From the NCBI GenBank assembly GCA_018606645.1, contig JAGVRI010000003.1, positions 27,322-91,321 on the forward strand: DNA of 64,000 nt. Direction: 5' to 3'. The translations under genes and the position numbers were made by a program. Numbering within the stretch: position 1 is the stretch's first letter; each line of letters begins with the position of its first letter. The stretch is from Chloroflexota bacterium (lineage in GTDB: Bacteria; Chloroflexota; Anaerolineae; JAAYZQ01). Under the pieces are notes generated by a model, which had not been told where the DNA came from, ran no database searches, and saw only the letters and a program-made list of their open reading frames with translations. Positions 3,783-55,430 of the stretch are shown one piece after another.

Positions 3783-3826
3783 GGGAAGCGGAGCTTTTAG
3801 GGTGGACCGGATAAAGCCTCGACTCC
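3783..3826. repeat. degenerate copy of 44-bp palindromic element (family A)
   Basis: gggaagcggagcttttagggtggaccggataaagcctcgactcc; right arm identical to family consensus, left arm diverged. Confidence 0.6.
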
Positions 3827-3878
3827 CTGACGAGAGGAGGGGATGGGGCATGGGAGCGACCGGACCCCTCCCCCCGGC

Positions 3879-3917
3879 CCCCTCCCCGCGTGCGGGGAGG
3901 GGGTGCGGGGGTGGGGT
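3879..3917. repeat. C-rich perfect palindrome followed by G-run (G4-like) motif
   Basis: cccctccccgc-gt-gcggggagggg palindrome then gggggtgcgggggtggggtg; related motif seen at 19771-19836 and 21245-21294. Confidence 0.5.
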
Positions 3918-3936
3918 GAAGTGGTCTGTCGCAGAG

Positions 3937-3980
3937 GGAGTGGAGCCTTCAGGCGGTGGACCGGCAAAAGCCTCGACTCC
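3937..3980. repeat. 44-bp palindromic element, family A, compact copy 1
   Basis: ggagtggagccttcaggcggtggaccggcaaaagcctcgactcc; differs at 1 position from copies at 35282 and 53049. Confidence 0.8.
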
Positions 3981-12730: not shown

Positions 12731-12822
12731 GGTTGCTCCTTAGTGTCCCTCGATTATTATACTCACAAGGTCTGGAAAAGCAAGCGGGCAGTTGGGGCTG
12801 TTTCAGAGTTCGGCACCCGGTG

Positions 12823-12880
12823 GGAGTGGAGGCTTTAGCCGGAAGGGAATTGCGCAGAATCCAGCGAAAGCTTCCGCTCC
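12823..12880. repeat. family A palindromic element, long-loop degenerate copy
   Basis: ggagtggaggctttagccgg ...21 nt... gcgaaagcttccgctcc in the ABC/GerW intergenic region. Confidence 0.55.
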
Positions 12881-13067
12881 TGGGCCGTTCCGCAACCCCG
12901 CAGCCGGCTTGGCGACAGCCGCACACCCGGTGGTCCTCTCACACGGCTGAATGGGAAGGCTTCCCATGCCGGCATCAAATGCATCCGTTTTGACAGATAC
13001 AGGCTTTTCGTCTATAGTCTCTTTCGTTCATGGATGATGGTCTAGCAAGTCATGATCAGGAGGACTC

Positions 13068-18690: not shown

Positions 18691-19703
18691 GCCGGAAACC
18701 GAACGTTTGGGTCACGCGCCTCATCCCCGAAGGCGGCCTGGAGCTGATCCGTGAGGCGTGCGAGGTGGAGGTCTGGACGGAGGAACTGCCGCCGCCTCGG
18801 GAAGTGCTCCTGGAGAAGGTGCGGGGCCGGGATGGTTTGCTCTGTCTGCTCACCGATCGGATCGACGCAGCGGTGATGGACGCGGCCGGTCCAAGCCTGA
18901 AGGTGATCAGCAACCTGGCGGTGGGCTATGACAACGTGGATGTGGCGGCGGCGACGGCGCGGGGCATCCCGGTGGGCAATACGCCGGGGGTGCTGACCGA
19001 GACGACGGCCGACATGGCCTTTGCCTTGCTCATGGCTGCGGCGCGGCGCATTGTGGAAGGGGTTGACTATGTGCGGGCCGGCCGGTGGCGGACCTGGGGA
19101 CCGATGCTGCTGCTGGGCTACGACGTGCATGGGGCTACGCTGGGGATCGTGGGCATGGGCCGCATCGGTCAGGCGGTCGCGCGGCGGGCCGCCGGCTTTG
19201 AGATGCGCATTCTCTATTTTGATCCCTACTGCGACCCTGGCAAGATTCCACCGGGGATCGAGGCGACGTGCTGCACCCTGGAAGAACTCCTGGCCGAGGC
19301 CGATTTCGTCAGTCTGCATGTTCCTCTCACCCCAGAAACCTATCGCCTGATCAACGCCGAGAGACTGGCCCAAATGAAGCCTACGGCGGTGTTGGTCAAC
19401 ACCTCGCGCGGACCGGTGGTGGATACCGAGGCGCTCTATCAGGCGCTGGCCTCGGGTCAGATCGCGTACGCCGCGCTGGATGTGACCGATCCGGAACCGT
19501 TGCCGGCGGACCACAAGCTGCTGACGCTGCCCAACTGCCTGGTGGTGCCGCACATTGCCAGTGCGAGCTGGGCGACGCGGACGCGGATGGCGCAGATGGC
19601 GGCGGAGAATCTGATGGCCGGGCTGCGGGGAGAGCGGCTGCCCCATTGCGTGAACCCTGAGGTGTACGGTTCCCAGCCGGGGCAATCGGAACCTGAGCGG
19701 TAG
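18687..19703 (+). CDS. D-isomer specific 2-hydroxyacid dehydrogenase (glyoxylate/hydroxypyruvate reductase-like)
   Basis: NAD-binding GxGxxG (GIVGMGRIG), catalytic R/E/H arrangement; 4-nt overlap with upstream gene. Confidence 0.85.
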
Positions 19704-19704
19704 C

Positions 19705-20007
19705 GGCGGAAGCCTCGACTATCTGGCCTGCGGCCGTGCGTCCCCCGGCAGAGACTTGACCCCCACCTAACCTCCCCCGTCAAGGGGGAGGGACTCGGAT
19801 CCCCCCTCCCCTGGTGGGAGGGGTGGGGGGAGGGGGCCGGTGGAAACGCGTCCGCAGCGGTCTATTTTCGGAGAAGTAGCCAGGCCCGGCTGGGCGCCAC
19901 GAGGGATGAGACTCGGGGCCTGTCAACGAATGGGAAACGAATCAACGAATGGACGCAGCTCCGGGTGGGGGAGTGGAGGCTCTAGGCGGCTGACCGGCTA
20001 AAGGGGG
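19705..20007. repeat. composite intergenic repeat region (family A half copy, G4/C-rich palindrome motif, degenerate family A copy)
   Basis: 19705-19723 ggcggaagcctcgactatc; 19771-19791 cctccccc-gtcaa-gggggagg hairpin; 19815-19836 gggaggggtggggggaggggg; 19970-20007 ggagtggaggctctaggcggctgaccggctaaaggggg. Confidence 0.6.
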
Positions 20008-20070
20008 CGACCGGGCCGGTCGCCCCTACGCTCCCCGCGCGGGGGGAGCGCTCGATTTTCGGGGGAACTG

Positions 20071-21012: not shown

Positions 21013-21244
21013 ACGCTGCAGTGCAATGGAACCGATTGATGCGGACATGCTCAGGACAAGCCCGAAGATCGGTCTGTCCTCCGGCGCGCTCGCCTGTCGC
21101 TCGAAGCGGCGGGCTCAGCCAGCGAAGCCCCTTTCGGGGCTGGGAAACCGGCTTTCACGGGACTTGACATGCGTGGTGGGGGCGGCGCGAGGGATGGAAA
21201 TATCGAGGAGTTGGCACGGCCAGACCTCTCCTCATCCCCCCGGC

Positions 21245-21280
21245 CCCCTTCCCCTCTCCGCCGGCGGAGAGGGGAAGGGG
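21245..21280. repeat. perfect 36-bp palindrome, followed by G-run motif
   Basis: ccccttcccctctccgcc|ggcggagaggggaagggg is a perfect inverted repeat centred on ccgg; followed by gggggtgcagggggcaggggtgagg (21271-21294). Confidence 0.7.
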
Positions 21281-21338
21281 GTGCAGGGGGCAGGGGTGAG
21301 GTGAGGACCCTTATTTTCGAAGGATGAGGGGATCGTCC

Positions 21339-25215: not shown

Positions 25216-25330
25216 GAGATCCTCATTCTTGAATGATCGGTCCCCGCTGCGGGGGCGTGCGCTCGATTATACCTGCTTTGGTCGGACCTGTCCAGTTTTC
25301 TACCGTTAACGGAGAGGCACCCGACAGCGC

Positions 25331-25556
25331 GGGTTCTAGGCGATTCCACTCCGGCTAAAGCCTCGACTCCCATCGGGTGGCGGACTTGGCCCAGGAGTGG
25401 AAGCTTTAGCCGGGTTCTGTACGGTTCCGTTCCGGCTAAAGCCTCGACTCCCACCGGGTGCTGGACCCTGCCGCCGAGGAGTGGAGGCTTTAGCCGGGTT
25501 CTGTACGATTCCGGTCCGGCTAAAGCCTCCACCCCCACCGGGCGCCGGACCTGCCC
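25331..25556. repeat. tandem array (~2.7 units of 82-84 bp) of long-loop family A palindromic element
   Basis: Unit gggttctgtacgattccggtccggctaaagcctcgactccca-(24 nt)-ggagtggaggctttagcc repeated at 25331, 25412, 25496; each unit contains a ~20-bp inverted repeat. Confidence 0.8.
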
Positions 25557-25617
25557 TACAGCCCCAACCTGATGGCTTGCGCGCTGACCGAATTCGAGTT
25601 ACAATGAGGGCCATCGC

Positions 25618-26376
25618 GTGGCTGGAGAGTTCATCTTGGATACTCATGCGATCATTATCCCCACCTATAATGAGCGGGAAAATATCGGCCTGTTGATCCG
25701 GGAGCTTCTGGCGCTGGAGCTGGGCTCGCGGGTCATTATTGTGGACGACAACTCCCCAGACGGTACCGGCCAACTGGCGGACGAGTTGGCGAAGGATCAT
25801 CCGGGCATCCGGGTCATCCACCGTCCGGGCAAACTCGGTCTGGGGACGGCTCACATCGCCGGGATGAAAGCAGCGCTGGCCGATGGGGCGGCCCACATTG
25901 TGACCATGGATGCCGATCTATCGCATTCTCCGCGCTATCTGCCTGATCTGCTGGCGGCTCTGGACCGCTTCGATGTGGTGATCGGCTCCCGCTACGTGCC
26001 GGGAGGCGGGACGCTGTATTGCACGGTACCTCGCCGCGTCCTCAGCCGCGGGGCCAATCTCTTTGCCCGCGCCGTGCTGAGCCTGCCCGCCGGCGATGCC
26101 ACGGCCGGTTTCCGGGGCTACCGCCGGGCGGTGCTGGAGAGCATCGCTCTGGATGAGATCCGGTCCGATGGGTACTCGTTTCTGATCGAGATGCTGTACC
26201 ATTGTCAACAGCAGGGATGGCGCATTGGCGAGGTCCCCATTGTCTTTGAGAACCGACAGCGGGGCGCGTCCAAAATCTCCAAAGCCGAGATCCTGAAAGC
26301 CCTGCAGACGGTCGGACGGCTGGGTTGGGACCGCCTGGGGAACCACCAGCCCCCCCGCCATCGCACCGAGCCATGA
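25618..26376 (+). CDS. polyprenol-phosphate mannosyltransferase (Dpm1/Ppm1-like GT2)
   Basis: IIPTYNEREN...VDDNSPDGT...DAD..H... GT2 DPM1-like motifs; GTG start. Confidence 0.85.
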   Translation: MAGEFILDTHAIIIPTYNERENIGLLIRELLALELGSRVIIVDDNSPDGTGQLADELAKDHPGIRVIHRPGKLGLGTAHIAGMKAALADGAAHIVTMDADLSHSPRYLPDLLAALDRFDVVIGSRYVPGGGTLYCTVPRRVLSRGANLFARAVLSLPAGDATAGFRGYRRAVLESIALDEIRSDGYSFLIEMLYHCQQQGWRIGEVPIVFENRQRGASKISKAEILKALQTVGRLGWDRLGNHQPPRHRTEP

Positions 26377-27932: not shown

Positions 27933-30030
27933 CCTGACCCAACGTGCTCCCATTCCATGGGGGCTGACGGTCAGCGGGGTTCTGCTGTGGCTGGTGGCGG
28001 TCCTTCCTGCGTATTATGTGGTGCATAAGCCTTTTGCCGGCGAGTCTGCCCTGGTTTCGCCGACTATTTCCTTTAACTTTTCTGCCATGGCTCTCGCGAT
28101 CGGGAGCAGGCTGGCTGCTCTTGGTTTGCTGACGGCGACCGTCGTCATGGCGGCCGCCTGGGGCGGCCGTCTCGGCAGGTGGTTAGGCATTCCGTTCGAG
28201 TCCGATCTGGAACGATGGGCTCTGGGGGCCACGCTGGGCCTGGGCCTGCTGGGCAGTGTCGTGTTTGGACTGGGGGCCGTGGGTGGACTCTATCCCGCTG
28301 TCGCCTATCTTCTTCTCGGGGTCCTCGGAGTTGCCGGTGGACCAGAGGTCCGTACTCTGGTGCGAGGGTTGCGCCCTCGGCTGCATCCGATGCCAGGGAA
28401 CCGAATTCGCTGGCTCTGGCTTTACGCCGGCCTGGTGGGCCTGCTATCCCTGGGCGCTGCCCTCTTGCCCCCGACCGCCTGGGATGCATTGGTTTACCAT
28501 CTGCAAGGTCCTCGCCTCCATGTGGAGGCCCATCGCCTGATCGCTGTCCCGGAGAACTTTTATCTGAATTCGCCCGCCCAGGTGGAGATGCTCTTTACCT
28601 GGGGATTGCTGCTCCAGGGGGATCTGTTGGCCCAACTGCTCCATTGGGTCTTTTGGCCGTTGACGGCGATATTGCTGTACGCCCTGGTTCGACGGAACGG
28701 GAACCCTGAGGTTGGGGGGTGGGCTGTCGCTCTGTGGGCCTCGGTGCCCTTTGCCGGCGAACTGGCCGGGGTCGCCTATGTGGATGTCGGCCTGACCGCC
28801 TTTGTCCTGGGCAGCGCCTATGCCTTCCTGAAATGGACCGAATCGCAAAATGCGCGTTGGCTGACGCTGGCAGCCCTGTTCCTGGGGCTGGCTATGGCCA
28901 CCAAGTACACGGCGGTAACATGGCTGGGCCTTTTGGCTCTGCTGGTTGTGTACCATGGCGCACGGGACCAGAAGCGGCCTGTGGGTTGGGTCGTGAGCCA
29001 GGCGACCAAGATGGGAATGATCGCTGCCCTCCCCGTCCTCCCATGGCTGGTCAAGAACTGGATCGTGACCGGCAATCCGGTCTATCCGTTCCTGTGGGGC
29101 GGGGTGGGATGGAACGAGACACGGGCGGCATGGCTCCTCTGGCCCGGCCACGGCTACAGCCGCAACTTGCTGGACTATCTGGCGCTGCCCTGGACCATGA
29201 CCGTCACCGGGGTCAGCCGCACCGCTGCCTTTGACGCGACGACCGGCCCACTGCTGCTGTGCCTCGCGCCGTGGGTGGTTCTATTCCGGGGATTGCCCAA
29301 GGCGGTCCGCTATGCGCTGATCCTGATCGGCGGACAATGGGTCCTGTTTGCTCTCCTGATCGGGCGGTATGTGTATCTGGCCGAGACGCGCCTGTTGTTG
29401 CCCGCTTTTCCATTGCTCTGTCTGGTGGCTGCCTTTGTCCTGGATCACCTGTCTCTCTGGGATCGAGCGGGGTTGCGCCTGTCCCGGGTCGTCAGGGGGA
29501 TCGTGGTCATGGTGCTGGTGCTGACGCTGGCGACTGAAGCATGGGCGTTCCTGGGATCTCGACCGTTGCCGGCGTTGCTGGGTTTGGAGCCGCGCCAGAA
29601 CTACCTGGCGCGGCGACTGGGCGCTTTTTGGGACGCGATGAGCTATGTAAATGAACAATTGCCTGACCATGTCCGACTCTTCTTTCTGTGGGAACCCCGA
29701 GGCTACTACTGTGACCGTCCGGCGCAGGCCGATGTCACACTCGACAACCTGGCTCAGCTCCGCGTGCGCTATGGGGACGCCGATAGGGCGGTGGCGGCGT
29801 TGCAGGCGGGAGGTTTTACGCATCTTCTTTTCCATAAAACGGGCTTGGAGTTCCTGCAACAGCCGTCTATCCCTCCTCCGACGCTCGGTCGCTTGTTCAG
29901 ACCCGTGCTCCCGACCGAATCGTATTACCCGATCACCGCAACCGATCTCGATTTTCTGGCTACGATTCTCGAAAAATGCCAGAAAATCAAAGACATCGCT
30001 GCAACCTATGAGGTTTACCAAATCCCTTGA
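27907..30030 (+). CDS. GT-C fold polytopic membrane glycosyltransferase-like protein
   Basis: ~15 TM-like segments, C-terminal soluble domain; overlaps upstream stop; alternative ATG at 27919. Confidence 0.6.
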   Translation: MVGPMKQDNLTQRAPIPWGLTVSGVLLWLVAVLPAYYVVHKPFAGESALVSPTISFNFSAMALAIGSRLAALGLLTATVVMAAAWGGRLGRWLGIPFESDLERWALGATLGLGLLGSVVFGLGAVGGLYPAVAYLLLGVLGVAGGPEVRTLVRGLRPRLHPMPGNRIRWLWLYAGLVGLLSLGAALLPPTAWDALVYHLQGPRLHVEAHRLIAVPENFYLNSPAQVEMLFTWGLLLQGDLLAQLLHWVFWPLTAILLYALVRRNGNPEVGGWAVALWASVPFAGELAGVAYVDVGLTAFVLGSAYAFLKWTESQNARWLTLAALFLGLAMATKYTAVTWLGLLALLVVYHGARDQKRPVGWVVSQATKMGMIAALPVLPWLVKNWIVTGNPVYPFLWGGVGWNETRAAWLLWPGHGYSRNLLDYLALPWTMTVTGVSRTAAFDATTGPLLLCLAPWVVLFRGLPKAVRYALILIGGQWVLFALLIGRYVYLAETRLLLPAFPLLCLVAAFVLDHLSLWDRAGLRLSRVVRGIVVMVLVLTLATEAWAFLGSRPLPALLGLEPRQNYLARRLGAFWDAMSYVNEQLPDHVRLFFLWEPRGYYCDRPAQADVTLDNLAQLRVRYGDADRAVAALQAGGFTHLLFHKTGLEFLQQPSIPPPTLGRLFRPVLPTESYYPITATDLDFLATILEKCQKIKDIAATYEVYQIP

Positions 30031-30131
30031 CGGTACAATCGAACTATTGGCAACATGGGCCATTTCTGCTATACTTGCACTGGAGCAAGTTCGTCTTCGG
30101 GAAGCCGGTTTCGTGGAAAAGATGGCCAGAG

Positions 30132-31796
30132 ATGCAGAAGACAAGACCCCAGTTGTTGTCCCGTGCTAGGTCTGAAGATGGCTCTATCCTGACCTGGTCC
30201 GTCCTCTTGATCTTCTTCCTTGCCCTGGCTCTCCGCTGGCTGTACGTCCAGGTGGTGGTCTTTCCTCCCCTGGATGATCCCGCGTTCTACCTGACCACGG
30301 CCCAAAACCTGGTGGCCGGACGCGGCCTGGAAATAGATGCTCTATGGAGCTATCAGGTCCCGTTTGAGGGGGTCACCCATCCCAGCCACGAGCACTGGAT
30401 GCCGCTGACCACCGGGTTGATGGCGGTCGCTCTCGCGATCCAGCGGTTGCTGGGGGGAGCATCCCAGAGCCCCTTGCGCGCCGGTCAGATGCCGGGGTGG
30501 ATCATGGGCGCCCTGCTGGTGCCGCTGACCTATTGGGTGGGCCGGTGGGCTCTTCCGGCAAGAGCGGGCAGCCGCCAGGTTGCGCTGGGCGCGGCCCTCC
30601 TGGTCGCGGCGAACGCGACCTTGAGTTACCAGGCGGCCAGCGCGGATAGCAGCGCGCCCTTTGCCCTGCTGGGGGCTGGGGTGCTGGCCGCCGCCGGGCG
30701 GAAATCCGGGACAGGAGGGGGGTTTTTGAGCATCGGCCTGCTGATCGGCCTTGCCTACCTGACCCGCGCCGACGGCCTGCTATTCCTTCTGGCCGTACCG
30801 CTGGCTTGGTGGCTTGGACCCCGGCCGGCCTGGAACGGTCGGCCTGGGGAAAGCTCGCCGGAGGTCGGCCAAGGCAGACGCAGACCCGGTCTGGTCGGCA
30901 TGGTGGATATGGGAGCAGGCTTTTTCCTGGTCGTCATCCCGTGGTTGGTGCGGAATTACCTGGCTTTTGGCACGCCGCTCCCCAGCTCGGTGCTCCACCA
31001 GGCATGGTTAACCGACTATCTGGACACCTTTAACTATCTCACCCACCCGACCTGGCGGAGCTGGATGGCTCAGGGCTGGGTCGAGAGCCTGGCCCAGCGG
31101 GGCCAGGCTCTTCTCCACAACGGGAAGGTGTTTCTGGTCAGCACGTTCCCGTGGGGGGTGCTGGCTCTACCGGGCTTGTGGTGGCTCCGCCGGGAGCCGG
31201 CCTTCTTCCCTTCTCTGGTCTACAGCCTGCTCCTGTACCTGGTGATGGCGCTTGCCTTTCCTGTATCCTCGATGTCCGGGACGTTCTACCATTCCTTGGG
31301 AGCGGTGACTCCCTTTTGGGCCTTGAGTGCGGTTTATGCGGTACAGGTGGCTGCTGAGCGGTTCGGGAAGAGCCGCGATCCGCGCTTGATCGGCCCGACC
31401 CGGACGGCACTGGTGGTGGGGTTGGCGGTGCTGAGCGGGGCGCAGGCGGCCCTGGCCTTGCCCACGGTCGCAGCTCGCCATCGGGCGGAAAAGGAGCAGT
31501 ATGAAGCGATAGCCCGGTGGCTGGCCGATCATGCCGCTCCGGGCGACGTGGTGATGACCACACAGCCCTACACCCTGCATTACGCCAGCGGCCATCCGTG
31601 TATCGTTCTGCCGGGCAATGAATCGCCTGAGGCCGCATGGCAGGCCGCGCAACGGTATGGCGCCCGGTACCTGGTCATCACCCAGACCTTCGGACAGTAT
31701 CCTCGCATCCTGCACGATCGGCCGGATCCGCGTTTTCTGCCGCTTGTTGCCACCGACGACGCCGAGATCTATGCCATCCAGGGAGAGACCCCGTGA
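30132..31796 (+). CDS. GT-C fold polytopic membrane glycosyltransferase-like protein
   Basis: Paralog of 31793-33406 gene (shared motifs HPxxEHWMPL, VRNYLAFGTPLP, ARYLVI); ATG 30132 chosen, TTG at 30027 possible. Confidence 0.6.
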   Translation: MQKTRPQLLSRARSEDGSILTWSVLLIFFLALALRWLYVQVVVFPPLDDPAFYLTTAQNLVAGRGLEIDALWSYQVPFEGVTHPSHEHWMPLTTGLMAVALAIQRLLGGASQSPLRAGQMPGWIMGALLVPLTYWVGRWALPARAGSRQVALGAALLVAANATLSYQAASADSSAPFALLGAGVLAAAGRKSGTGGGFLSIGLLIGLAYLTRADGLLFLLAVPLAWWLGPRPAWNGRPGESSPEVGQGRRRPGLVGMVDMGAGFFLVVIPWLVRNYLAFGTPLPSSVLHQAWLTDYLDTFNYLTHPTWRSWMAQGWVESLAQRGQALLHNGKVFLVSTFPWGVLALPGLWWLRREPAFFPSLVYSLLLYLVMALAFPVSSMSGTFYHSLGAVTPFWALSAVYAVQVAAERFGKSRDPRLIGPTRTALVVGLAVLSGAQAALALPTVAARHRAEKEQYEAIARWLADHAAPGDVVMTTQPYTLHYASGHPCIVLPGNESPEAAWQAAQRYGARYLVITQTFGQYPRILHDRPDPRFLPLVATDDAEIYAIQGETP

Positions 31797-33406
31797 AGTG
31801 GCCGCCTCCCCTTCGCCCTGATCTCAAACACCTGGCATGGCCACTGGCTGTGCTGATCCTGTCCCTTGTGGTTCGTCTGCTCACGGCCTGGCCGCTGGGC
31901 CAGCCCGGCTATACCGATGCCTATTACTATGCCGTCGGGGCGCGACAACTATATGGCGGTCAGGGGTTCAGCGAGCCGTTTGTCTGGAACTACCTCAGCC
32001 CGCCCGAGCGCGTCCCCCACCCCGGCTACGAGTACTGGATGCCGCTGGCCGCCATGCTGGGCTGGCTGGGGCTGGCCCTGGGCGGCGATTCCTTCCGCGC
32101 CCTCCAGGCGCCGTTCCTCGTGCTGGCTGCTGTGCTGCCGGTCATCGCCTATGGGGTGGCCTGGGACCTGACCGGCAAGCGAAAGCATGCGCTGCTGGCG
32201 GGAGGGCTGGCGGTTTTCCCCGGCTTCTATGCCCACGTCCTGGTCCTGCCCGACACCTTTGCCCCGTTTGCGGTGGTCGGCAGCGCCTGCCTGTGGGCCA
32301 CGGGTCGAGGTCTGCGCAGCGGTCGGGCGCGGTGGTTCGGGGCAGCCGGGCTGGCCGCCGGGCTGGCCCATCTAGCACGGGCCGATGGGATGCTGTTGGC
32401 CGGGGTGGTCCTGCTGGCGGCAGTGGCTCAGCGTCCCCGGTCTGGCAGCCGGTGGGGCGGAGGCTGGTGGACTCGAGCGGTCAGCCTGGCGATGACCGTG
32501 GCCGGCTATCTGGCGGTGATGGGCCCGTGGTTCCTCCGCAACTGGCGGACCTTTGGCACGCCGCTGCCTGGGTCCGGGATGTCCACGCTCTTCCTGACGT
32601 CGTATGACGACATGTTCGCCTATGGCCGGCGCCTGACATGGTCCACCTACCTGAGCTGGGGCTGGGAGCCGGTCCTGCGGTCCAAGGCGGAGGCGCTGTG
32701 GATCAACCTGCAGCGCCTGTGGGTGGAGAACCTGCTCGTCTTTCTGCTGCCGTTCGCTGCCCTGGGGCTGTGGCGGCTGCGCCGGGACCGCCGGCTGTGG
32801 CCCTTCCTTCTCTATCTGCCGCTCTTGTTTGGGGCGATGACCATCGCCTTCACGTTTCCAGGGATGCGAGGCGGACTCTACCATTCGGGCGGGGCGCTGC
32901 TGCCCTTCTTTTTTGCGGCAGCGGGACCGGGATTGGAGGCGGCGCTCCAGGCGGCGGCGCGGCGGTTCCGGGGATGGCAGACAAAGACGGCATGGACGGT
33001 GTTTGCCGTCGGGTTCGTGGGGTTGGCGGCGCTGGTGACGCTCCTGGCGCTGGCGCGGGCGGGAGTGCTGACCGGGGAGTGGAACGAGCGGGACCGCGGC
33101 TATGCGGAGATTGGGGATTGGCTGGCGGGGCAGGGGGCAACCGGCGCGGTGGTGATGGTCGGCGACGCGCCGGGTTTTAGCTGGCACACCGGTCATCCGG
33201 CGGTTGCCGTGCCGAACGAGCCGCTGGAGGTCATCCTGGCGGTGGCAGACCGATACAGCGCGCGCTATCTGGTCCTGGATGCCAAACGTCCCCGCACGAC
33301 CGATGCCCTGTACGAAGGGCGGGCCGGGCATTCGCGGCTGGTGCTGCGGTGCACGGTGAGTCGCCAAGATCAGCGTTGGCAAGTGTATGAGGTCCGGGAG
33401 CCCTGA
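31793..33406 (+). CDS. GT-C fold polytopic membrane glycosyltransferase-like protein
   Basis: GTG start overlapping upstream stop (gtga); motifs HPGYEYWMPL, LRNWRTFGTPLP, ARYLVL shared with upstream paralog. Confidence 0.6.
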   Translation: MKWPPPLRPDLKHLAWPLAVLILSLVVRLLTAWPLGQPGYTDAYYYAVGARQLYGGQGFSEPFVWNYLSPPERVPHPGYEYWMPLAAMLGWLGLALGGDSFRALQAPFLVLAAVLPVIAYGVAWDLTGKRKHALLAGGLAVFPGFYAHVLVLPDTFAPFAVVGSACLWATGRGLRSGRARWFGAAGLAAGLAHLARADGMLLAGVVLLAAVAQRPRSGSRWGGGWWTRAVSLAMTVAGYLAVMGPWFLRNWRTFGTPLPGSGMSTLFLTSYDDMFAYGRRLTWSTYLSWGWEPVLRSKAEALWINLQRLWVENLLVFLLPFAALGLWRLRRDRRLWPFLLYLPLLFGAMTIAFTFPGMRGGLYHSGGALLPFFFAAAGPGLEAALQAAARRFRGWQTKTAWTVFAVGFVGLAALVTLLALARAGVLTGEWNERDRGYAEIGDWLAGQGATGAVVMVGDAPGFSWHTGHPAVAVPNEPLEVILAVADRYSARYLVLDAKRPRTTDALYEGRAGHSRLVLRCTVSRQDQRWQVYEVREP

Positions 33407-33430
33407 CAGGGGCACTGCACGGAGGGCCCA

Positions 33431-35038
33431 GTGAAACAGGCTGAGAAGGGTTGGACGCATCAGTGGCTGGTGATGGGGATGGTGGCCCTGTTGAGCACGG
33501 GTCTCTACCCGCTCTACTCCTATCTCGGCGGCCATCTCGGCTTTCCGCTGGACGACGCCTGGATCCACCAGACCTACGCCCGCAATCTGGCCCAGACCGG
33601 ACAGCTTGCCTATCGGCCCGGTCAGCCTAGCGCCGGGTCCACCTCGCCAGCGTGGAGTTTCCTTCTTTCCCTGGCCTACCTGGTCGGTCTGGACTACCGC
33701 TTATGGGCCTACCTATTGGGCGGGCTGGCGTTGGCCGCCAGCGCCTGGCTCACCCGCCGCCTCTTTCTGCGTCTGGCTCCCCGGCGCCCCCAGGCCGCCC
33801 TGTGGACCGGGCTCCTGGTTGCCACGGAGTGGCACCTGGTCTGGGCTGCGGCGTCGGGCATGGAAACGATGCTCTTTACCGCGCTGTCGCTGGCGCTCCT
33901 GGATTATTTCTGGGGCTACGCGGCCGGGCCGTCCGCCGCTACCGGACCGGTCAGTCTCCAGACGGAGCGGACGATGGTCAGCGCCGTCGGCATCGGCTTG
34001 CTGGGCGGGCTGCTGGTGGTCACCCGACCGGAAGGACTGGGATTGGCGGCGTTGGTGGCCGTCGCATTTCTGGTGGTTCCAGGTCCTACCGGCCGCAAGA
34101 TGACCAGGACGCGCTTCCTGGCGGCCGGGGCGTTGCTGGCGGCCTTTGGGCTGATTGCGGGGCCCTATGTGGCCTTTAACCTGAGGACGGCGGGAGCGGT
34201 CTTTCCCACGACCTTCTATGCGAAACAGACCGAATATCAGATCTCCCTTGCGCTGCCGGTCCGTTTCTGGCAGGTACTGAGCCCCACCTTGGTCGGCGCT
34301 CAGGTGCTGCTCCTGCCCGGCCTGGGCTATGGGCTCTATCGGCTGCTGCGCCACATCCTTTCTCATCGGAACGCTGCTCATGGTGAGCCCAAGCGCTTGG
34401 AAATCGTGCCGGCGCTCTTGCCGCTGGGATGGTGGGCGGCGCTGCTCGTCGTCTACACCCTGCGTTTGCCGGTCGCGTACCAGCATGGCCGCTATGTCAT
34501 GCCCACCATCCCGCTGCTCCTCCTCTACGGTTCCTGGGGCACGGCCGAGTTGCTGCGCCCACGCTCTTCTCAGCCGTGGCAGCGCGTGCTCAGTCGAAGC
34601 GTGCTTGCGGCCCTGATCCTGCTGGTGGGGTGGTTCTGGGGACGGGGGGCGATCGCCTACCGCGATGAAGTGGGCTTTATTGAGGGGGAGATGGTGGCCG
34701 TTGCCGAATGGCTGAATGAGCATACAGACCCCGGAGACTGGATCGCGGTGCATGACATTGGCGCCATCGGATATTTTGCCGATCGCCCGCTTCTGGACCT
34801 GGCCGGATTGATCAGTCCGGAGGTGATCCCGTTCATGACCGATGCAGAGAGGCTGATGAACTGGATCGCCGAGCGGGGGGCCAGGTATCTCGTCTTTTTC
34901 CCTGACTTTTCGACCACCTATCGCCGGCTTTCGACGGATCCCAGGCTCCAGGTGGTCTATTGCACCGACCATGCCTGGACGCGGCAGCAGGGACATGAGA
35001 ATATGTGCGTGTACCGCCTTACGAGTATCGTTCCGTGA
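33431..35038 (+). CDS. GT-C fold polytopic membrane glycosyltransferase-like protein
   Basis: Loop motif FPLDDAWIHQTYARN, many TM segments, C-terminal soluble domain ending ARYLVFFPD shared with paralogs. Confidence 0.6.
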   Translation: MKQAEKGWTHQWLVMGMVALLSTGLYPLYSYLGGHLGFPLDDAWIHQTYARNLAQTGQLAYRPGQPSAGSTSPAWSFLLSLAYLVGLDYRLWAYLLGGLALAASAWLTRRLFLRLAPRRPQAALWTGLLVATEWHLVWAAASGMETMLFTALSLALLDYFWGYAAGPSAATGPVSLQTERTMVSAVGIGLLGGLLVVTRPEGLGLAALVAVAFLVVPGPTGRKMTRTRFLAAGALLAAFGLIAGPYVAFNLRTAGAVFPTTFYAKQTEYQISLALPVRFWQVLSPTLVGAQVLLLPGLGYGLYRLLRHILSHRNAAHGEPKRLEIVPALLPLGWWAALLVVYTLRLPVAYQHGRYVMPTIPLLLLYGSWGTAELLRPRSSQPWQRVLSRSVLAALILLVGWFWGRGAIAYRDEVGFIEGEMVAVAEWLNEHTDPGDWIAVHDIGAIGYFADRPLLDLAGLISPEVIPFMTDAERLMNWIAERGARYLVFFPDFSTTYRRLSTDPRLQVVYCTDHAWTRQQGHENMCVYRLTSIVP

Positions 35039-35227
35039 CCGCCTGACGGTTCACTCCAGGGTTGTCGCATGAAAATAGCCGGCGGCTGAAGCCGCGCCTG
35101 TCAGGCCGGCGGCCGAACGTCCCCCGGCGGGGACGCGTTCCGTCGGCGCAGGCCGACGGCCAGCCGAAGGTTCTTGAGGGGCGATTTCAATCGCGGTCTA
35201 TTATCGAGGAGCCTTTCGGCGGGTTGT

Positions 35228-35325
35228 CCGGCTGAAGCCTCGACTCCCGGATGCGGGGAGCGGTCTGTTTCGAAGGGAGGTGGAGTGGAGCCTTCAGGCG
35301 GTGGACCGGCTAAAGCCTCGACTCC
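35228..35325. repeat. family A palindromic elements: half copy (35228-35247) plus compact 44-bp copy 2 (35282-35325)
   Basis: ccggctgaagcctcgactcc then ggagtggagccttcaggcggtggaccggctaaagcctcgactcc. Confidence 0.8.
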
Positions 35326-35330
35326 TGGAT

Positions 35331-35455
35331 GCGAGGAGCGGCATTCCCGGCAACAGCGCATGAGGCCAGGGAGTTCTGGCCAATGGCGGCGATTCAAGCG
35401 GCAGGTGATCAGCGGGAATGCCTCGCCGCTACGACGTGGATGGAGAATGCACAGC
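35331..35455 (+). repeat. ~120-bp repeat family B, copy 1
   Basis: gcgaggagcggcattcccgg...ttctggccaatggcggcgattcaagcggcagg...cgggaatgcctcgccgctac...gagaatgcacagc; internal inverted repeat ggcattcc/ggaatgcc; aligns at ~75-80% with 37980-38101. Confidence 0.7.
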
Positions 35456-35479
35456 TCTATGAAGAGGATAGCACTCGAG

Positions 35480-37979: not shown

Positions 37980-38101
37980 GGGGCGAGGCATTCCGGGGAA
38001 CGGCGTATAAGGGCAGGTGGTTCTGGCCCATCCGCGGCGATTCAAACGGTAGGCGGCCACTGGGAATGCCTCGCCCCTACAATGTCAGAGAATGCAACAG
38101 C
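37980..38101 (+). repeat. ~120-bp repeat family B, copy 2
   Basis: ggggcgaggcattccgggg...ttctggcccatccgcggcgattcaaacggtagg...gggaatgcctcgcccctac...gagaatgcaacagc; same orientation as copy 1. Confidence 0.7.
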
Positions 38102-52601: not shown

Positions 52602-55430
52602 ATGGCTCATAGTTCCTGGCGGCGGCAATTCCTGACCGTTCTGGTCTACAGCATCCTGGCGCTGGCTCTCACCTGGCCGCTTGTCAGCCGGTTCACCGAT
52701 CATGTGCCGGGTAACGGGGTGGACGATCCGCCGCTGACCTGGAACCTGTGGTGGGTTCGTCATGCCCTGCTGGAGTTGGGCGTTGATCCGTTTGACTGCG
52801 CCTACCTGTTCTATCCGATCGGCATCAACCTGGCGTTTTACACCCTCACCATTCTGAACAGCTTGCTCTCCATTCCCTGGCAGGCGGTTTGGGGCCTGGT
52901 GCCGGCCAGCAATCTGTTACTTCTGTCTTCCTTTGTGCTGAGTGGGTATGGAGCCTTTCTTCTGGGATGGTATTGTTTAGGAAGAGGCAGGGCACAGGCC
53001 CCGGACGAACCCCTCACGCCTTTGAAAATAGACCGCGCCCCTCGCGCAGGAGTCGAGGCTTCAGCCGGTCCACCGCCTGAAGGCTCCACTCCCCCAGCCG
53101 GAGTCGAGGCCTCCGCCGCCAACCTCGATATTTTCATCCGTCGTGGCGCCCCACCGGGCATGGCTACTCCCTCCAGAATGTTTCTGGCGGCGTTTGTGGC
53201 CGGTCTTCTCTATGCCTTTGCCTCATGCAAAATGGCCTATGCGGCGCTGGGGCAATGGAATATCGCCAGTTCTCAATGGATCCCGTTTTATGTGCTCTAT
53301 TTGTTCAGAATGGGGGAATGCCCAGGCCGATGGCGCTATCTCCTTCTGGCGGCGCTCTTTTTATGGTTTCAGGCCTATGCGGAGCTGACCTATGCTTCGT
53401 TCCTGGTGCTCTTTACCGCAGGATGGGGGCTGTGGCGACTGCTCATTTGCCTTCGAGAGCGGAACGTACGACAGGCCAAGCGTCTAATCGGCAAGCTGGC
53501 TGTTCTTGCACTGTTGACTGTCGGAGGGCTGATCCCGGTCCTGGTCCGGATGATCCCGGACATGGTGCAGGAAGGGCGGTTTCTGGTCGAAGGCGAAGGC
53601 TTTGCCGACGTCTTCTCTGCGGACCTGTTGGGGTTCTGGGTGCCGACCATGTATCACCCGGTGCTGGGGTCATGGGTGGAGCGGTTCCGTTTTGATTACA
53701 GTGTGGGGCAACATATCTATGTGGGGTATGCGGTGCTGGCGCTGGTTCTGGTGGCCGGCGTCCGCTGTTGGCGCAGGCCCGGAGTGCGCTTTTGGTTTGC
53801 GTCGGCGTGTGTGTTCTGGGTGTTGACGTTCGGTCCTTCGCTCCGGATCAATGGTCAGAGCACCGGGCTGCCGATGCCGTTTGTCTGGATTGCGCGGCTG
53901 CCCTTCTTTGAGGGGAATCGGTATCCAAGCCGTTACAGCGTGCTCTTGATGCTCAGCCTGGCTATGTTGGTGGCTTTTGGGTTGAGTGAGCTTCTTCGCC
54001 GTCGGGGTGGGCGCTTTCGCGCCGTCCCTTGGACCGTCTCCTGGTTGTTGATCCTGCTGCTTCTGGGCGAGCACCTCTCGATTCCACTTCCGTTGTCCGA
54101 TATGCGGGTGCCGGCCGTGTATGACAAGATCGCCGGGGAGTACCCTGGCGACTGGGCGCTGTTGGACCTGCCGGTGGCCTGGCGGAATGGTTTTCGCGTG
54201 ACCGGGACGCAGCATCCGGTGATCATGTTTGAACAGTACTATCAATCCGCCCACGGCAAACGGCTCCTGGGAGGCAATACGTCGCGCAATCCCCCTTTCA
54301 AATTCCAGTATTTTACGGAAGCGCCGGTGATCAACACCCTGATCGCCCTGGAAACCGGGCATGAGGTGGACCCTGAGGTCGTGAAGCGTGACCGATCTCT
54401 GGCTCCGGAGGTGCTGCGATTTTTCAATATCGAGGCGGTGGTAGTTCATACGGATCAGACCGGACCGGATGTCATCCCGTACATTCAGGCGACCCTGCCC
54501 GTTCGGGCCATCTACGAGCAAGCGGGGATCGTCGCGTACCGGGCCGAGCTGCCGCCATGGCCCTCGACCTGGGATATCCGGCCGGGCGATGCGTTGTCAC
54601 GATTGAGCCTCGGCGAAGGTTGGGGGGCGCCGACCGACGATCTGGTCTGGGCCCAACGGCGCACGGTTCGACTGCTCGTGCCGCTGCGGGGTGGGCGCCA
54701 ACGGATGACCTTCCGCATGTATAGCCCGGAAGGTGGATCCTATCTCCGGGTGGAGGCGAATGGACAATTGGTGGTCCGCCTTCCCTTGAAGTCAGGGTGG
54801 GCTGACTATGAGTTGGAGATCCCGGGCGATCGAGTCGATGCCGGATTGAATGAGTTTCGGCTCCGCTTTGAGAAACTCTATCCCACGGAGGAGATCCGGC
54901 TCTCACCACGCTCGGTTGGCGCAACCGGGGTCGAGTCGCCGGTCAACCTGGTGGTGCAAAGCGCCGGGCAAGAGGTGGGGGATTTGGCTTATCTGTACGT
55001 CAACGGCAGACAGGTTTCGCCCAACCAGCGGGGGTACAACCTGGTGGTGGTGAATGCGGAGAATGGTACGGTGGAACAGGTAGTCAGCTTTGACACCCAT
55101 CTCAACGAAAGGGCCAGCGCAGAGCTGGCTGCTGTTCTGAACCAGGTGTCGCCTGGCCGGATCGTGGCGGTCGCGGTCGCTGATGAGGCGTCACGGCTGC
55201 TGGGTGAGGAGGCAGTGAACGCCCTGCGCCGTATCGGAGCGACGGAGGACCTGCGAGGCCGATTCCGGTGGGGGCAGGCGATCATCGGGGTACAGGGCGC
55301 AGCGCCCGGTACGGCTCTGGAAGCGGCGGATTGGATGCGCCCAGTCACACTGGTGGTGGGCGAGGGGGCCACCGAACCGCAGCTCGCGGCCGCTTTTGCC
55401 TGGATCCGGTTCACGGCGGTTCCAGAGTAG
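52602..55430 (+). CDS. large polytopic membrane protein (GT-C/YfhO-like N-domain) with C-terminal ILEI/PANDER-like domain
   Basis: 942 aa; many TM segments; C-terminal GYNLVVVNAENGTVEQVVSFDTH...GRIVAVAVADEAS...IGATEDLRGRFRWGQ matches FAM3/ILEI pattern; contains an in-frame family A repeat at 53049-53092. Confidence 0.6.
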   Translation: MAHSSWRRQFLTVLVYSILALALTWPLVSRFTDHVPGNGVDDPPLTWNLWWVRHALLELGVDPFDCAYLFYPIGINLAFYTLTILNSLLSIPWQAVWGLVPASNLLLLSSFVLSGYGAFLLGWYCLGRGRAQAPDEPLTPLKIDRAPRAGVEASAGPPPEGSTPPAGVEASAANLDIFIRRGAPPGMATPSRMFLAAFVAGLLYAFASCKMAYAALGQWNIASSQWIPFYVLYLFRMGECPGRWRYLLLAALFLWFQAYAELTYASFLVLFTAGWGLWRLLICLRERNVRQAKRLIGKLAVLALLTVGGLIPVLVRMIPDMVQEGRFLVEGEGFADVFSADLLGFWVPTMYHPVLGSWVERFRFDYSVGQHIYVGYAVLALVLVAGVRCWRRPGVRFWFASACVFWVLTFGPSLRINGQSTGLPMPFVWIARLPFFEGNRYPSRYSVLLMLSLAMLVAFGLSELLRRRGGRFRAVPWTVSWLLILLLLGEHLSIPLPLSDMRVPAVYDKIAGEYPGDWALLDLPVAWRNGFRVTGTQHPVIMFEQYYQSAHGKRLLGGNTSRNPPFKFQYFTEAPVINTLIALETGHEVDPEVVKRDRSLAPEVLRFFNIEAVVVHTDQTGPDVIPYIQATLPVRAIYEQAGIVAYRAELPPWPSTWDIRPGDALSRLSLGEGWGAPTDDLVWAQRRTVRLLVPLRGGRQRMTFRMYSPEGGSYLRVEANGQLVVRLPLKSGWADYELEIPGDRVDAGLNEFRLRFEKLYPTEEIRLSPRSVGATGVESPVNLVVQSAGQEVGDLAYLYVNGRQVSPNQRGYNLVVVNAENGTVEQVVSFDTHLNERASAELAAVLNQVSPGRIVAVAVADEASRLLGEEAVNALRRIGATEDLRGRFRWGQAIIGVQGAAPGTALEAADWMRPVTLVVGEGATEPQLAAAFAWIRFTAVPE
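53049..53117. repeat. family A 44-bp palindromic element (compact copy 3, reverse orientation) plus adjacent half copy, inside CDS
   Basis: ggagtcgaggcttcagccggtccaccgcctgaaggctccactcc = reverse complement of copies 1/2 with 1 substitution; translated in frame as AGVEASAGPPPEGSTPPAGVEASA. Confidence 0.8.

Follow-up and report, generated by a model that had tools for sequence, protein, structure and literature searches.

How does a palindromic repeat that otherwise lies between genes come to be translated as part of a protein? This question is raised by a 64-kb stretch of DNA from a member of the Chloroflexota (the whole stretch, 64,000 nucleotides long, is hereafter called the window), in which the open reading frame (ORF) of a large membrane-protein gene stays open through a 44-nt palindrome and a further, third arm of the same repeat, giving the translation ...RAPRAGVEASAGPPPEGSTPPAGVEASAANL... 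A preliminary description of this DNA had noted the read-through and had likened the palindrome to the Rickettsia palindromic elements (RPEs). The analysis reported here indicates that the segment ~53018-53167 is very probably a recent insertion of a small cluster of repetitive extragenic palindromic (REP) sequences, arranged like a bacterial interspersed mosaic element (BIME), and that the repeat is cognate to a Chloroflexota clade of REP-associated tyrosine transposases (RAYTs). With an empty site available at 95% identity, the locus affords a direct view of a selfish palindromic repeat becoming part of a protein.

Absence of the insert from syntenic orthologs

A set of 120 close homologs of the host protein was gathered by database search, and 121 sequences, including the window protein, were aligned. 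The closest ortholog (P0001, from contig L001; 892 aa) was 95% identical in amino acid sequence over aligned columns, and the next (P0002, from contig L002; 891 aa) was 80% identical. Both are syntenic with the window; in all three loci, the host gene has a folC-like gene on its upstream side and efp and a CNNM gene on its downstream side. At the DNA level, exactly 150 nt were missing in L001 and in L002, leaving a clean gap at the position of the insert. A megablast alignment of the window with L001 (95.5% identity) broke off at 53017 and was picked up again at 53180; the start of the 150-nt gap has eight equally good placements, from 53016 to 53023. The preliminary description had anticipated an indel of ~25 aa at this position and an element of ~96 nt (53030-53125). 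The indel is present in both the 95% and the 80% identical ortholog, but it is twice as long as anticipated, and the element extends over ~53018-53167, with a leader and a right-hand module. Given that L002 is the outgroup to the pair formed by the window and L001, a single gain in the window lineage is parsimonious. The insertion is recent, its age lying below the synonymous divergence (dS) of 0.13 between the window and L001.

The insert is a multiple of three in length, and two of its six reading frames are open, one per strand. The 50 inserted residues are rich in Gly, Pro, Ala, and Ser; within the host protein, residues 149-180 form a clean tryptic peptide (AGVEASAGPPPEGSTPPAGVEASAANLDIFIR). 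Peptide motifs derived from the repeat (such as GVEASAG and EGSTP) were found in the window protein only (0/120 homologs). Moreover, when the 50-aa insert was searched with phmmer against 1.84 billion representative proteins, no significant relative was recovered, and the three matches returned were weak and of low complexity. Because the homologs hold no insert motifs and the peptide has no significant relatives, the insert is not a protein module that was lost elsewhere.

The host protein was then considered as a whole. Pfam PF15711 matched residues 810-900 of its 942 residues (a C-terminal ILEI domain, ILEI/PANDER-like). An AlphaFold model had a mean predicted local distance difference test score (pLDDT) of 85.5 and a predicted template modelling score (pTM) of 0.82, and a Foldseek search with this model matched PglB, AftD, DPY19, AftA, and ArnT, and also the POMGnT1 stem and FAM3. 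The protein is thus modelled as an N-terminal GT-C-fold glycosyltransferase module followed by a C-terminal ILEI/PANDER-like domain. The only long stretch of the model with pLDDT below 50 comprised residues 135-178 and 180-185, which is the insert region; it was flanked by helices 99-132 and 190-205. In agreement with the preliminary description, which had placed a Gly/Pro/Ala/Ser-rich linker between membrane segments, the insert lies in a predicted disordered loop between two membrane helices. Helices 73-97 and 99-132 may represent a single membrane pass or two, and the Foldseek matches support the GT-C fold, not the topology. Across the 121 aligned homologs, the equivalent of this loop was 6-75 aa long (median 22), and the 71-aa loop of the window protein was the second longest.

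The loop equivalent (window residues 127-197) has also been enlarged independently in homologs from other lineages. A 42-aa loop variant (..HTRS..QRRSRN..HASRI.QYILYPAQRA..) is common to P0010, P0012, P0026, P0040, P0042, P0051, and P0083; the loop of P0022 carries SPGTAGKD tandem repeats; and those of P0056 and P0072 are Ser/Ala-rich and 62-75 aa long.

To gauge the integrity of the host gene, the ratio of nonsynonymous to synonymous divergence (dN/dS), which sums both lineages since their split, was estimated at 0.20 against L001 (at dS 0.13) and at 0.15 against L002. By segment, the values against L001 were 0.23 (residues 1-130), 0.17 (residues 190-500), and 0.22 (residues 500-942). With a dN/dS of 0.20, the host gene looks intact. 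The preliminary description had entertained a split gene or a pseudogene; the ORF is neither split nor decayed.

The insert as a REP cluster and its proposed cognate transposase

The pieces of the insert were compared by short-word BLAST against the window, by multiple alignment, and by pairwise alignment (Table 1); the insert proved to be a mosaic, every piece of which has copies in intergenic parts of the window. The palindrome at 53049-53092 consists of two inverted REPs that are separated by a short spacer, the 4-nt loop TCCA, and form one hairpin, as in a REPIN (a REP doublet forming a hairpin). Its mismatches fall at arm positions 6, 10, and 17, and it was present in both the RNA and the DNA folds. 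Within the window, copies of this hairpin were found at 35282-35327 (45/46 nt) and at 3936-3980 (43/45 nt). The degenerate third arm matched 19703-19720 on the minus strand (17/18 nt), and the right-hand module matched the minus strand at 21179-21208 (26/30 nt) and at 19875-19909 (31/35 nt). The last 20 nt of the right-hand module (CCACCGGGCATGGCTACTCC) look like a decayed inverted arm that ends in ACTCC; on this reading, the insert comprises the leader and two REP hairpins, one intact and the other decayed. Moreover, 53059-53168 could be aligned collinearly with 19875-20003 read on the reverse strand, at 79.6% identity over ungapped columns; the score of this composite alignment was 63, compared with a maximum of 28 in 300 shuffles. 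Given this collinear second copy, the composite itself is a recurring unit. The inserted RNA folded more stably than its shuffles, by a modest margin (z = -2.2).

Variants of the leader adjoin REP units at 35190-35275. Positions 53024-53036 and 53037-53048 form a terminator-like GC hairpin followed by the T-run TCTATTTTC on the minus strand (53049-53033), opposite to the host gene; a terminator scan of the region returned one minus-strand terminator-like site in the leader, a count within chance. The motif GCGGTCTATTTTC of the leader was also found with the intergenic REP units at 19857 and 35190.

When the 64-kb window was searched with a 14-nt arm pattern, at most 2 mismatches being allowed, 15 matches were obtained; 1.7 were expected, and no more than 5 were seen in any of 100 shuffles. 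Every other copy in the window sits between ORFs that have a coding-like GC pattern by codon position, and several copies lie between convergent genes or overlap a stop codon; gene calls on the syntenic contigs agree with the gene boundaries in the window where the two overlap.

The distribution of the repeat was examined by an exact-pattern scan with the 20-nt arm GGAGTCGAGGCTTYAGCCGG in one genome per species. At least 118 loci were recovered, and the genome of the window was not among the matches listed. Among the matches listed, 117/118 loci bore Chloroflexota labels, and the labels comprised Anaerolineae, Caldilineae, Ardenticatenia, Chloroflexia/Oscillochloris, Thermoflexales, and Dehalococcoidales. 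An inverted partner usually comes after the arm in these 118 loci; the two overlap by 4 nt (-4) at one extreme and stand ~40 nt apart at the other, and the flanks of the arms are lineage-specific. The sole non-Chloroflexota exact arm among the matches listed, on L099 (labelled as a metagenome-assembled genome (MAG) of Roseobacter sp.), may be a binning error, a chance copy, or a transferred copy. A different arrangement was seen on L063 (Chloroflexota bacterium USDE_maxbin.019), where the six exact arms at 2702-2915 all point one way and five are spaced 34 nt; this array consists of tandem single arms, not hairpins. A text search of the literature for the arm string returned only an unrelated primer, and the repeat is apparently undescribed, as far as the literature searched shows.

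When the 118 loci listed were searched for arms with a long spacer, a single case was obtained, L097, in which the arms enclose a 176-aa ORF (843-1373). Against the NCBIfam model NF047646, 'REP-associated tyrosine transposase', this ORF scored 107 bits, above the cutoff of 80, and it also matched PF01797 (Y1_Tnp). Its sole match in the PDB was E. coli TnpA-REP (4ER8; E = 7e-10), with an alignment that extends across the HUH and tyrosine motifs at about 25-30% protein identity as judged by eye. Two arms stand on each side of the gene, in inverted orientation, and RAYT homologs adjoin arms in L092 and L020 as well. As an independent test of this association, 80 metagenomic loci were retrieved with the RAYT protein alone and inspected for arms (at most 3 mismatches) within 400 nt. 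Arms were found near the RAYT gene in 55/56 loci encoding a protein with at least 45% identity to the L097 RAYT, compared with 0/24 loci of lower identity; the chance expectation, by our own estimate, is ~1e-4 per locus. In a typical locus, one inward-pointing arm lies 15-27 nt upstream of the gene and one lies 10-25 nt downstream. The clade comprises at least 405 protein clusters, the few named ones being from Anaerolineae and Thermoflexales, and one of its proteins has already been named 'REP-associated tyrosine transposase' by NCBI. Most of the contigs that carry the RAYT homologs P0247-P0365 measure only about 1-2 kb, which suggests that metagenome assemblies are routinely broken by the flanking REP arrays.

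Arm positions 10 and 17 formed a standard pair in 509/524 arms, of which 71 carried the double change from G:C to C:G; this covariation suggests that a small stem-loop may form inside each arm. Arm positions 4-7 read GTCG in most copies, and GTGG or GTAG in others, with GGA before this tag.

The repeat is thus a multi-copy imperfect palindrome that occurs mainly in extragenic clusters at gene ends, and a RAYT gene is flanked by its inverted arms. Because the arms flank this RAYT clade and not distant RAYTs, the element can be assigned to the RAYT-type REP/BIME clusters; judged by sequence, it is a REP of the Chloroflexota RAYT clade, in REPIN/BIME arrangements.

Table 1. Coordinates of the host gene, the insert and its parts, the other repeat units of the window, and genes of other genomes that read through a copy of the repeat. 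Positions are those of the window.
Feature	Position	Strand	Remarks
Host gene, membrane protein	52602-55430	+	942-aa ORF
Net in-frame insertion, 150 nt / 50 aa (~residues 141-190)	~53018-53167	+	Absent from L001 and L002
Leader motif GAAAATAGACCGC	53024-53036	+	Exact copy at 19857-19869, minus strand
REP arm 1 GGAGTCGAGGCTTCAGCCGG, translated GVEASAG	53049-53068	+	Exact match to the cross-Chloroflexota pattern
REP arm 2 (GGAGTGGAGCCTTCAGGCGG on the minus strand)	53073-53092	-	Pairs with arm 1
Degenerate third arm GGAGTCGAGGCCTCCGCCGC	53100-53119	+	4 mismatches to the arm; the half copy of the preliminary description
Right-hand module CCTCGATATTTTCATCCGTCGTGGCGCCCCACCGGGCATGGCTACTCC	53123 to ~53168-53170	+	Copies elsewhere in the window
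Two REP units	3783-3980		Between convergent genes
One REP unit, 18-nt-loop subfamily	12804-12886		Intergenic
REP cluster with second composite (hairpin half, spacer, right-hand module, leader)	19703-20013		Intergenic, convergent genes
Three tandem 81-84-nt REP units, 18-nt-loop subfamily	25308-25551		Between divergent genes
REP cluster with the closest copy of the inserted hairpin	35082-35341		Intergenic
Read-through copy, ArsA ATPase			Inter-domain linker; other Chloroflexota MAG
Read-through copy, heavy-metal P-type ATPase			Three tandem units inside the HAD domain; other Chloroflexota MAG
Read-through copy, histidine kinase			Other Chloroflexota MAG
Read-through copy, GT4 glycosyltransferase			Inter-domain linker; other Chloroflexota MAG
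Read-through copy, shikimate dehydrogenase			Between its two domains; other Chloroflexota MAG

Origin and survival of the insertion

Intragenic REPs have precedents. Di Nocera et al. (2013) described GTAG- and CGTC-tagged REPs that are mostly extragenic, some of which lie wholly inside ORFs in several species (PMC3733652). Such intragenic singles, dimers, or clusters encode 20-82 aa (clusters, 43-82 aa) and were proposed to be neutral through their position in linkers or loops; the GTAG class was tied to RAYT genes flanked by repeats, termed REPtrons (PMC3733652). The family described here resembles them in its short palindromes, which are mostly extragenic with occasional clusters inside ORFs, and in a RAYT flanked by repeats. 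It differs in sequence, in its tag (GTCG/GTGG after GGA, rather than a terminal GTAG), and in a two-arm hairpin whose 20-bp stem has conserved mismatches. Chloroflexus aggregans and Thermomicrobium roseum are the only Chloroflexota listed with GTAG repeats (PMC3733652); the window host is Anaerolineae-like, and the repeats of those two species are known here by listing, not by sequence. Like RPEs, the element is a palindromic in-frame insert of ~100-150 nt that adds a peptide, leaves the genes open, and has copies both in and between genes. Unlike RPEs, it resides in another host phylum, and there is no reason to think that the sequences are related. RPE-4 and RPE-6 have been equated with CGTC-tagged REPs that lack a dedicated transposase (PMC3733652), and neither CGTC nor GACG occurs in the arm consensus, a comparison made by tag and labels. 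Because it lacks the CGTC tag, belongs to a different phylum, and has a RAYT, the window element is not an RPE; the label 'RPE-like' remains apt as an analogy of behavior, the family being that of a RAYT-associated Chloroflexota REP.

Two further systems offer comparisons. In the REPIN-RAYT systems of Pseudomonas and Enterobacteria (Bertels and Rainey 2011, PMC3116915; Bertels et al. 2017, PMC5581495), as in the family described here, an inverted REP pair forms a hairpin, the RAYT is flanked by repeats, and the repeats far outnumber the transposase gene. The spacers of the window family are much shorter (0-40 nt), however, and its 20-nt unit is common to several classes of a phylum rather than lineage-specific. 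Comparison with E. coli REP/BIME and TnpA-REP (4ER8) likewise revealed a RAYT that aligns across the HUH and Y motifs and mosaic clusters at the 3' ends of genes; the REP sequence differs, and the Chloroflexota RAYT is known here by sequence only. The intragenic REP cluster is an event of a known kind, which this case extends to a new bacterial group.

RAYTs are HUH/Y1 enzymes related to the transposases of the IS200/IS605 family, which act on single-stranded hairpins without target duplication (PMC6006769, PMC3733652). The copy in the host gene may have arrived via RAYT-type single-strand cleavage and joining, or alternatively through recombination or template switching with another REP cluster. 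Once in place, it would persist owing to its near neutrality. Frameshifting insertions, and those that introduce a stop codon or fall in a structured region, would be purged, so that the survivors would accumulate in linkers and loops. The survival of this insert is best explained by such a filter, through which it passed by virtue of a length that is a multiple of three, an open frame, and a tolerant loop; insertions of this kind survive in loops that already tolerate changes in length.

Several observations weigh against a recent RAYT-related insertion into a functional gene. The junctions lack a clean signature. The left junction reads ...CTCACGCC/TTTG... and the right junction ...GGCT/ACTCC... 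(the slash marking the boundary), and at the empty sites L001 has CACACC and L002 has CACTCC. The junctional ACGCC and ACTCC (ACNCC) could stem from a 5-bp duplication that is imperfect or from microhomology to the end of an arm, which is ...ACTCC, or they could be coincidental. The 15 nt just after the insert (53166-53180) are unusually diverged, with 6 positions differing from L001. The sequence of the locus was taken from an assembled contig alone, and the 64-kb window contains no RAYT gene. With regard to the repeat family, the tag is GTCG/GTGG rather than the canonical GTAG, and the covariation of arm positions 10 and 17 was tallied over sequences rather than over independent events; degenerate tags (GTMG, GTGG) have been reported in some REP families (PMC3733652). 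Finally, being summed over both lineages, the dN/dS values are compatible with a very recent loss of function.

This last point bears on the possibility that the insertion is real but has inactivated the protein, leaving a very young pseudogene in which frameshifts and stops have yet to appear. The hairpin differs from another copy at 1/46 nt, which is compatible with a very recent event, and dN/dS cannot isolate the period after the insertion. Nevertheless, the insert keeps the frame and contains no stop, it falls in the sole region that the model leaves disordered, homologs already tolerate 6-75 aa in this loop, and five comparable ORFs elsewhere stay open through copies; we therefore consider inactivation unlikely. 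The opposite proposal, that the insertion has been kept because it is useful, its role being either to modulate expression through an mRNA hairpin or to act as a functional flexible linker, could draw on the fold of the inserted RNA and on the mRNA stabilization with which REPs have been credited elsewhere (PMC3733652). The insert is present in one lineage only, though, the sister genome manages without it, the family does not conserve the loop, and a z of -2.2 is modest, so this proposal appears quite improbable.

Explanations that dispense with a REP insertion fared no better. If the 50 residues were an ancestral linker, as the preliminary description had allowed, they would have to have been lost independently and precisely in the L001 and L002 lineages. 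Loop length does change often in this protein family, but two identical precise deletions would be needed, neither the residues nor the REP-derived motifs recur among the homologs, both syntenic orthologs carry the gap, and the DNA is 96-98% identical to intergenic repeats, compared with 95% identity between the flanking gene and its ortholog; such a history is scarcely credible. An assembly artefact, arising from a repeat-induced misjoin or from a minority population variant collapsed into the contig, deserves mention given that REPs break short-read assemblies (most RAYT contigs being of about 1-2 kb) and that the exact 942-aa protein is on record from one NCBI contig only, of 337,735 nt. 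That contig, at 337.7 kb, is long; both flanks are collinear with L001 at ~95.5% identity for 10 kb each side, and a chimera would need two crossovers that exactly keep the frame, all of which makes an artefact highly unlikely. We accord an equally low probability to a MITE (a miniature transposable element with inverted repeats) derived from a DDE-type insertion sequence, with the 20-nt arms as terminal inverted repeats and ACNCC as a 5-bp target-site duplication. The arms are inverted and 20 nt long, the junctions may carry a direct repeat of 5 bp, albeit an imperfect one, and the size is ~150 nt, all of which would suit a MITE. However, the arms are only -4 to ~40 nt apart and lie inside the insert rather than at its ends, the ends of the insert are not inverted repeats, and the ACTCC on the right is also the end of a decayed arm. 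In addition, the sole gene consistently bracketed by arms is a Y1/HUH RAYT, and no DDE transposase was found between arms in the 118 loci listed. With internal arms, no clean duplication, and no DDE parent, the element does not classify as a MITE. The insertion of a REP cluster into an intact gene thus remains the reading that we favor.

Other read-through genes pointed to a possible wider pattern. The preliminary description had held that, outside the host gene, the element is translated in spurious frames only. This is so inside the window, but in other Chloroflexota real genes read through it: among the 118 loci listed, open ORFs span copies in five genes (Table 1), with Pfam matches that flank or span the copy, and a sixth read-through ORF, which has no Pfam match, contains three GVEASAG repeats. 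These five genes and the sixth ORF were recognized by their open frames. It is conceivable, as a tentative proposal that we would not yet favor, that one REP-RAYT system, with a 20-nt repeat nearly invariant across at least five classes (Anaerolineae, Caldilineae, Ardenticatenia, Chloroflexia, and Dehalococcoidia), repeatedly seeds in-frame linker or loop segments in conserved proteins, perhaps generally in Chloroflexota. If true, REP 'exonisation' would be a recurrent source of protein length variation in this phylum, and the family would be among the most widely common REP families known.

Apart from this wider proposal, the association ties a repeat to a specific RAYT clade in a phylum known mostly from metagenome bins. 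Chloroflexota REPs fragment assemblies and can give rise to odd low-complexity inserts, in which annotators may see errors or pseudogenes. For RAYT biochemistry beyond Proteobacteria, the conserved 20-nt unit also constitutes, with its transposase, a tractable pair.

Repeat turnover and further features of the window

Repeat content also differed at an intergenic site. Window positions 35064-35462 hold 398 nt of REP cluster, compared with 32 nt in the sister L123, which is the same contig as L001 (~366 nt fewer); a single arm at the stop codon is common to the window and L123 at this site. In the more distant relative (L002 and L122, 36.7 kb), no arms were found, including at the site orthologous to the units at 25.3-25.5 kb. 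An Rfam search of the whole window returned no family at the gathering score, with sub-threshold generic hairpin/miRNA-like matches at 25250-25620 and nothing at 52980-53220.

Other repeats accompany the REP clusters. C-run/G-run palindromes (CCCCTCCCCCCGGCCCCCTCCCCGC / GCGGGGAGGGGGTGCGGGGGTGGGG), unrelated in sequence to the arms, lie beside REP clusters at 3859-3917, 19803-19841, and 21222-21300. A 53-nt repeat (GCGGCNGAAGCC...GTCCCCCGGCNGNGAC), 81% identical between 19703-19755 and 35082-35134, starts at or just past the stop codons of two genes, and its start resembles a decayed arm. A 52-nt direct repeat that does not belong to the REP family is 81% identical between 35386-35437 and 38034-38085, ~2.6 kb apart; the copy at 35386-35437 lies upstream of a response-regulator gene.

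A run of membrane glycosyltransferase genes occupies ~25.6-35 kb of the window. It includes two adjacent 589-aa paralogs (30027-31796 and 31637-33406), which have in common a 69-nt stretch of 74% identity. Within this GT-C/PMT-like glycosyltransferase cluster, ~3.1 kb of L123 (1614-4717) correspond to 148 nt of the window (33350-33498); the three extra genes in L123 are GT87, Mannosyl_trans2, and a 150-aa ORF. Homologs of the gene at 33431-35038 have been named arabinofuranosyltransferase, and PMT/PMT_2 is called at this position in L122.

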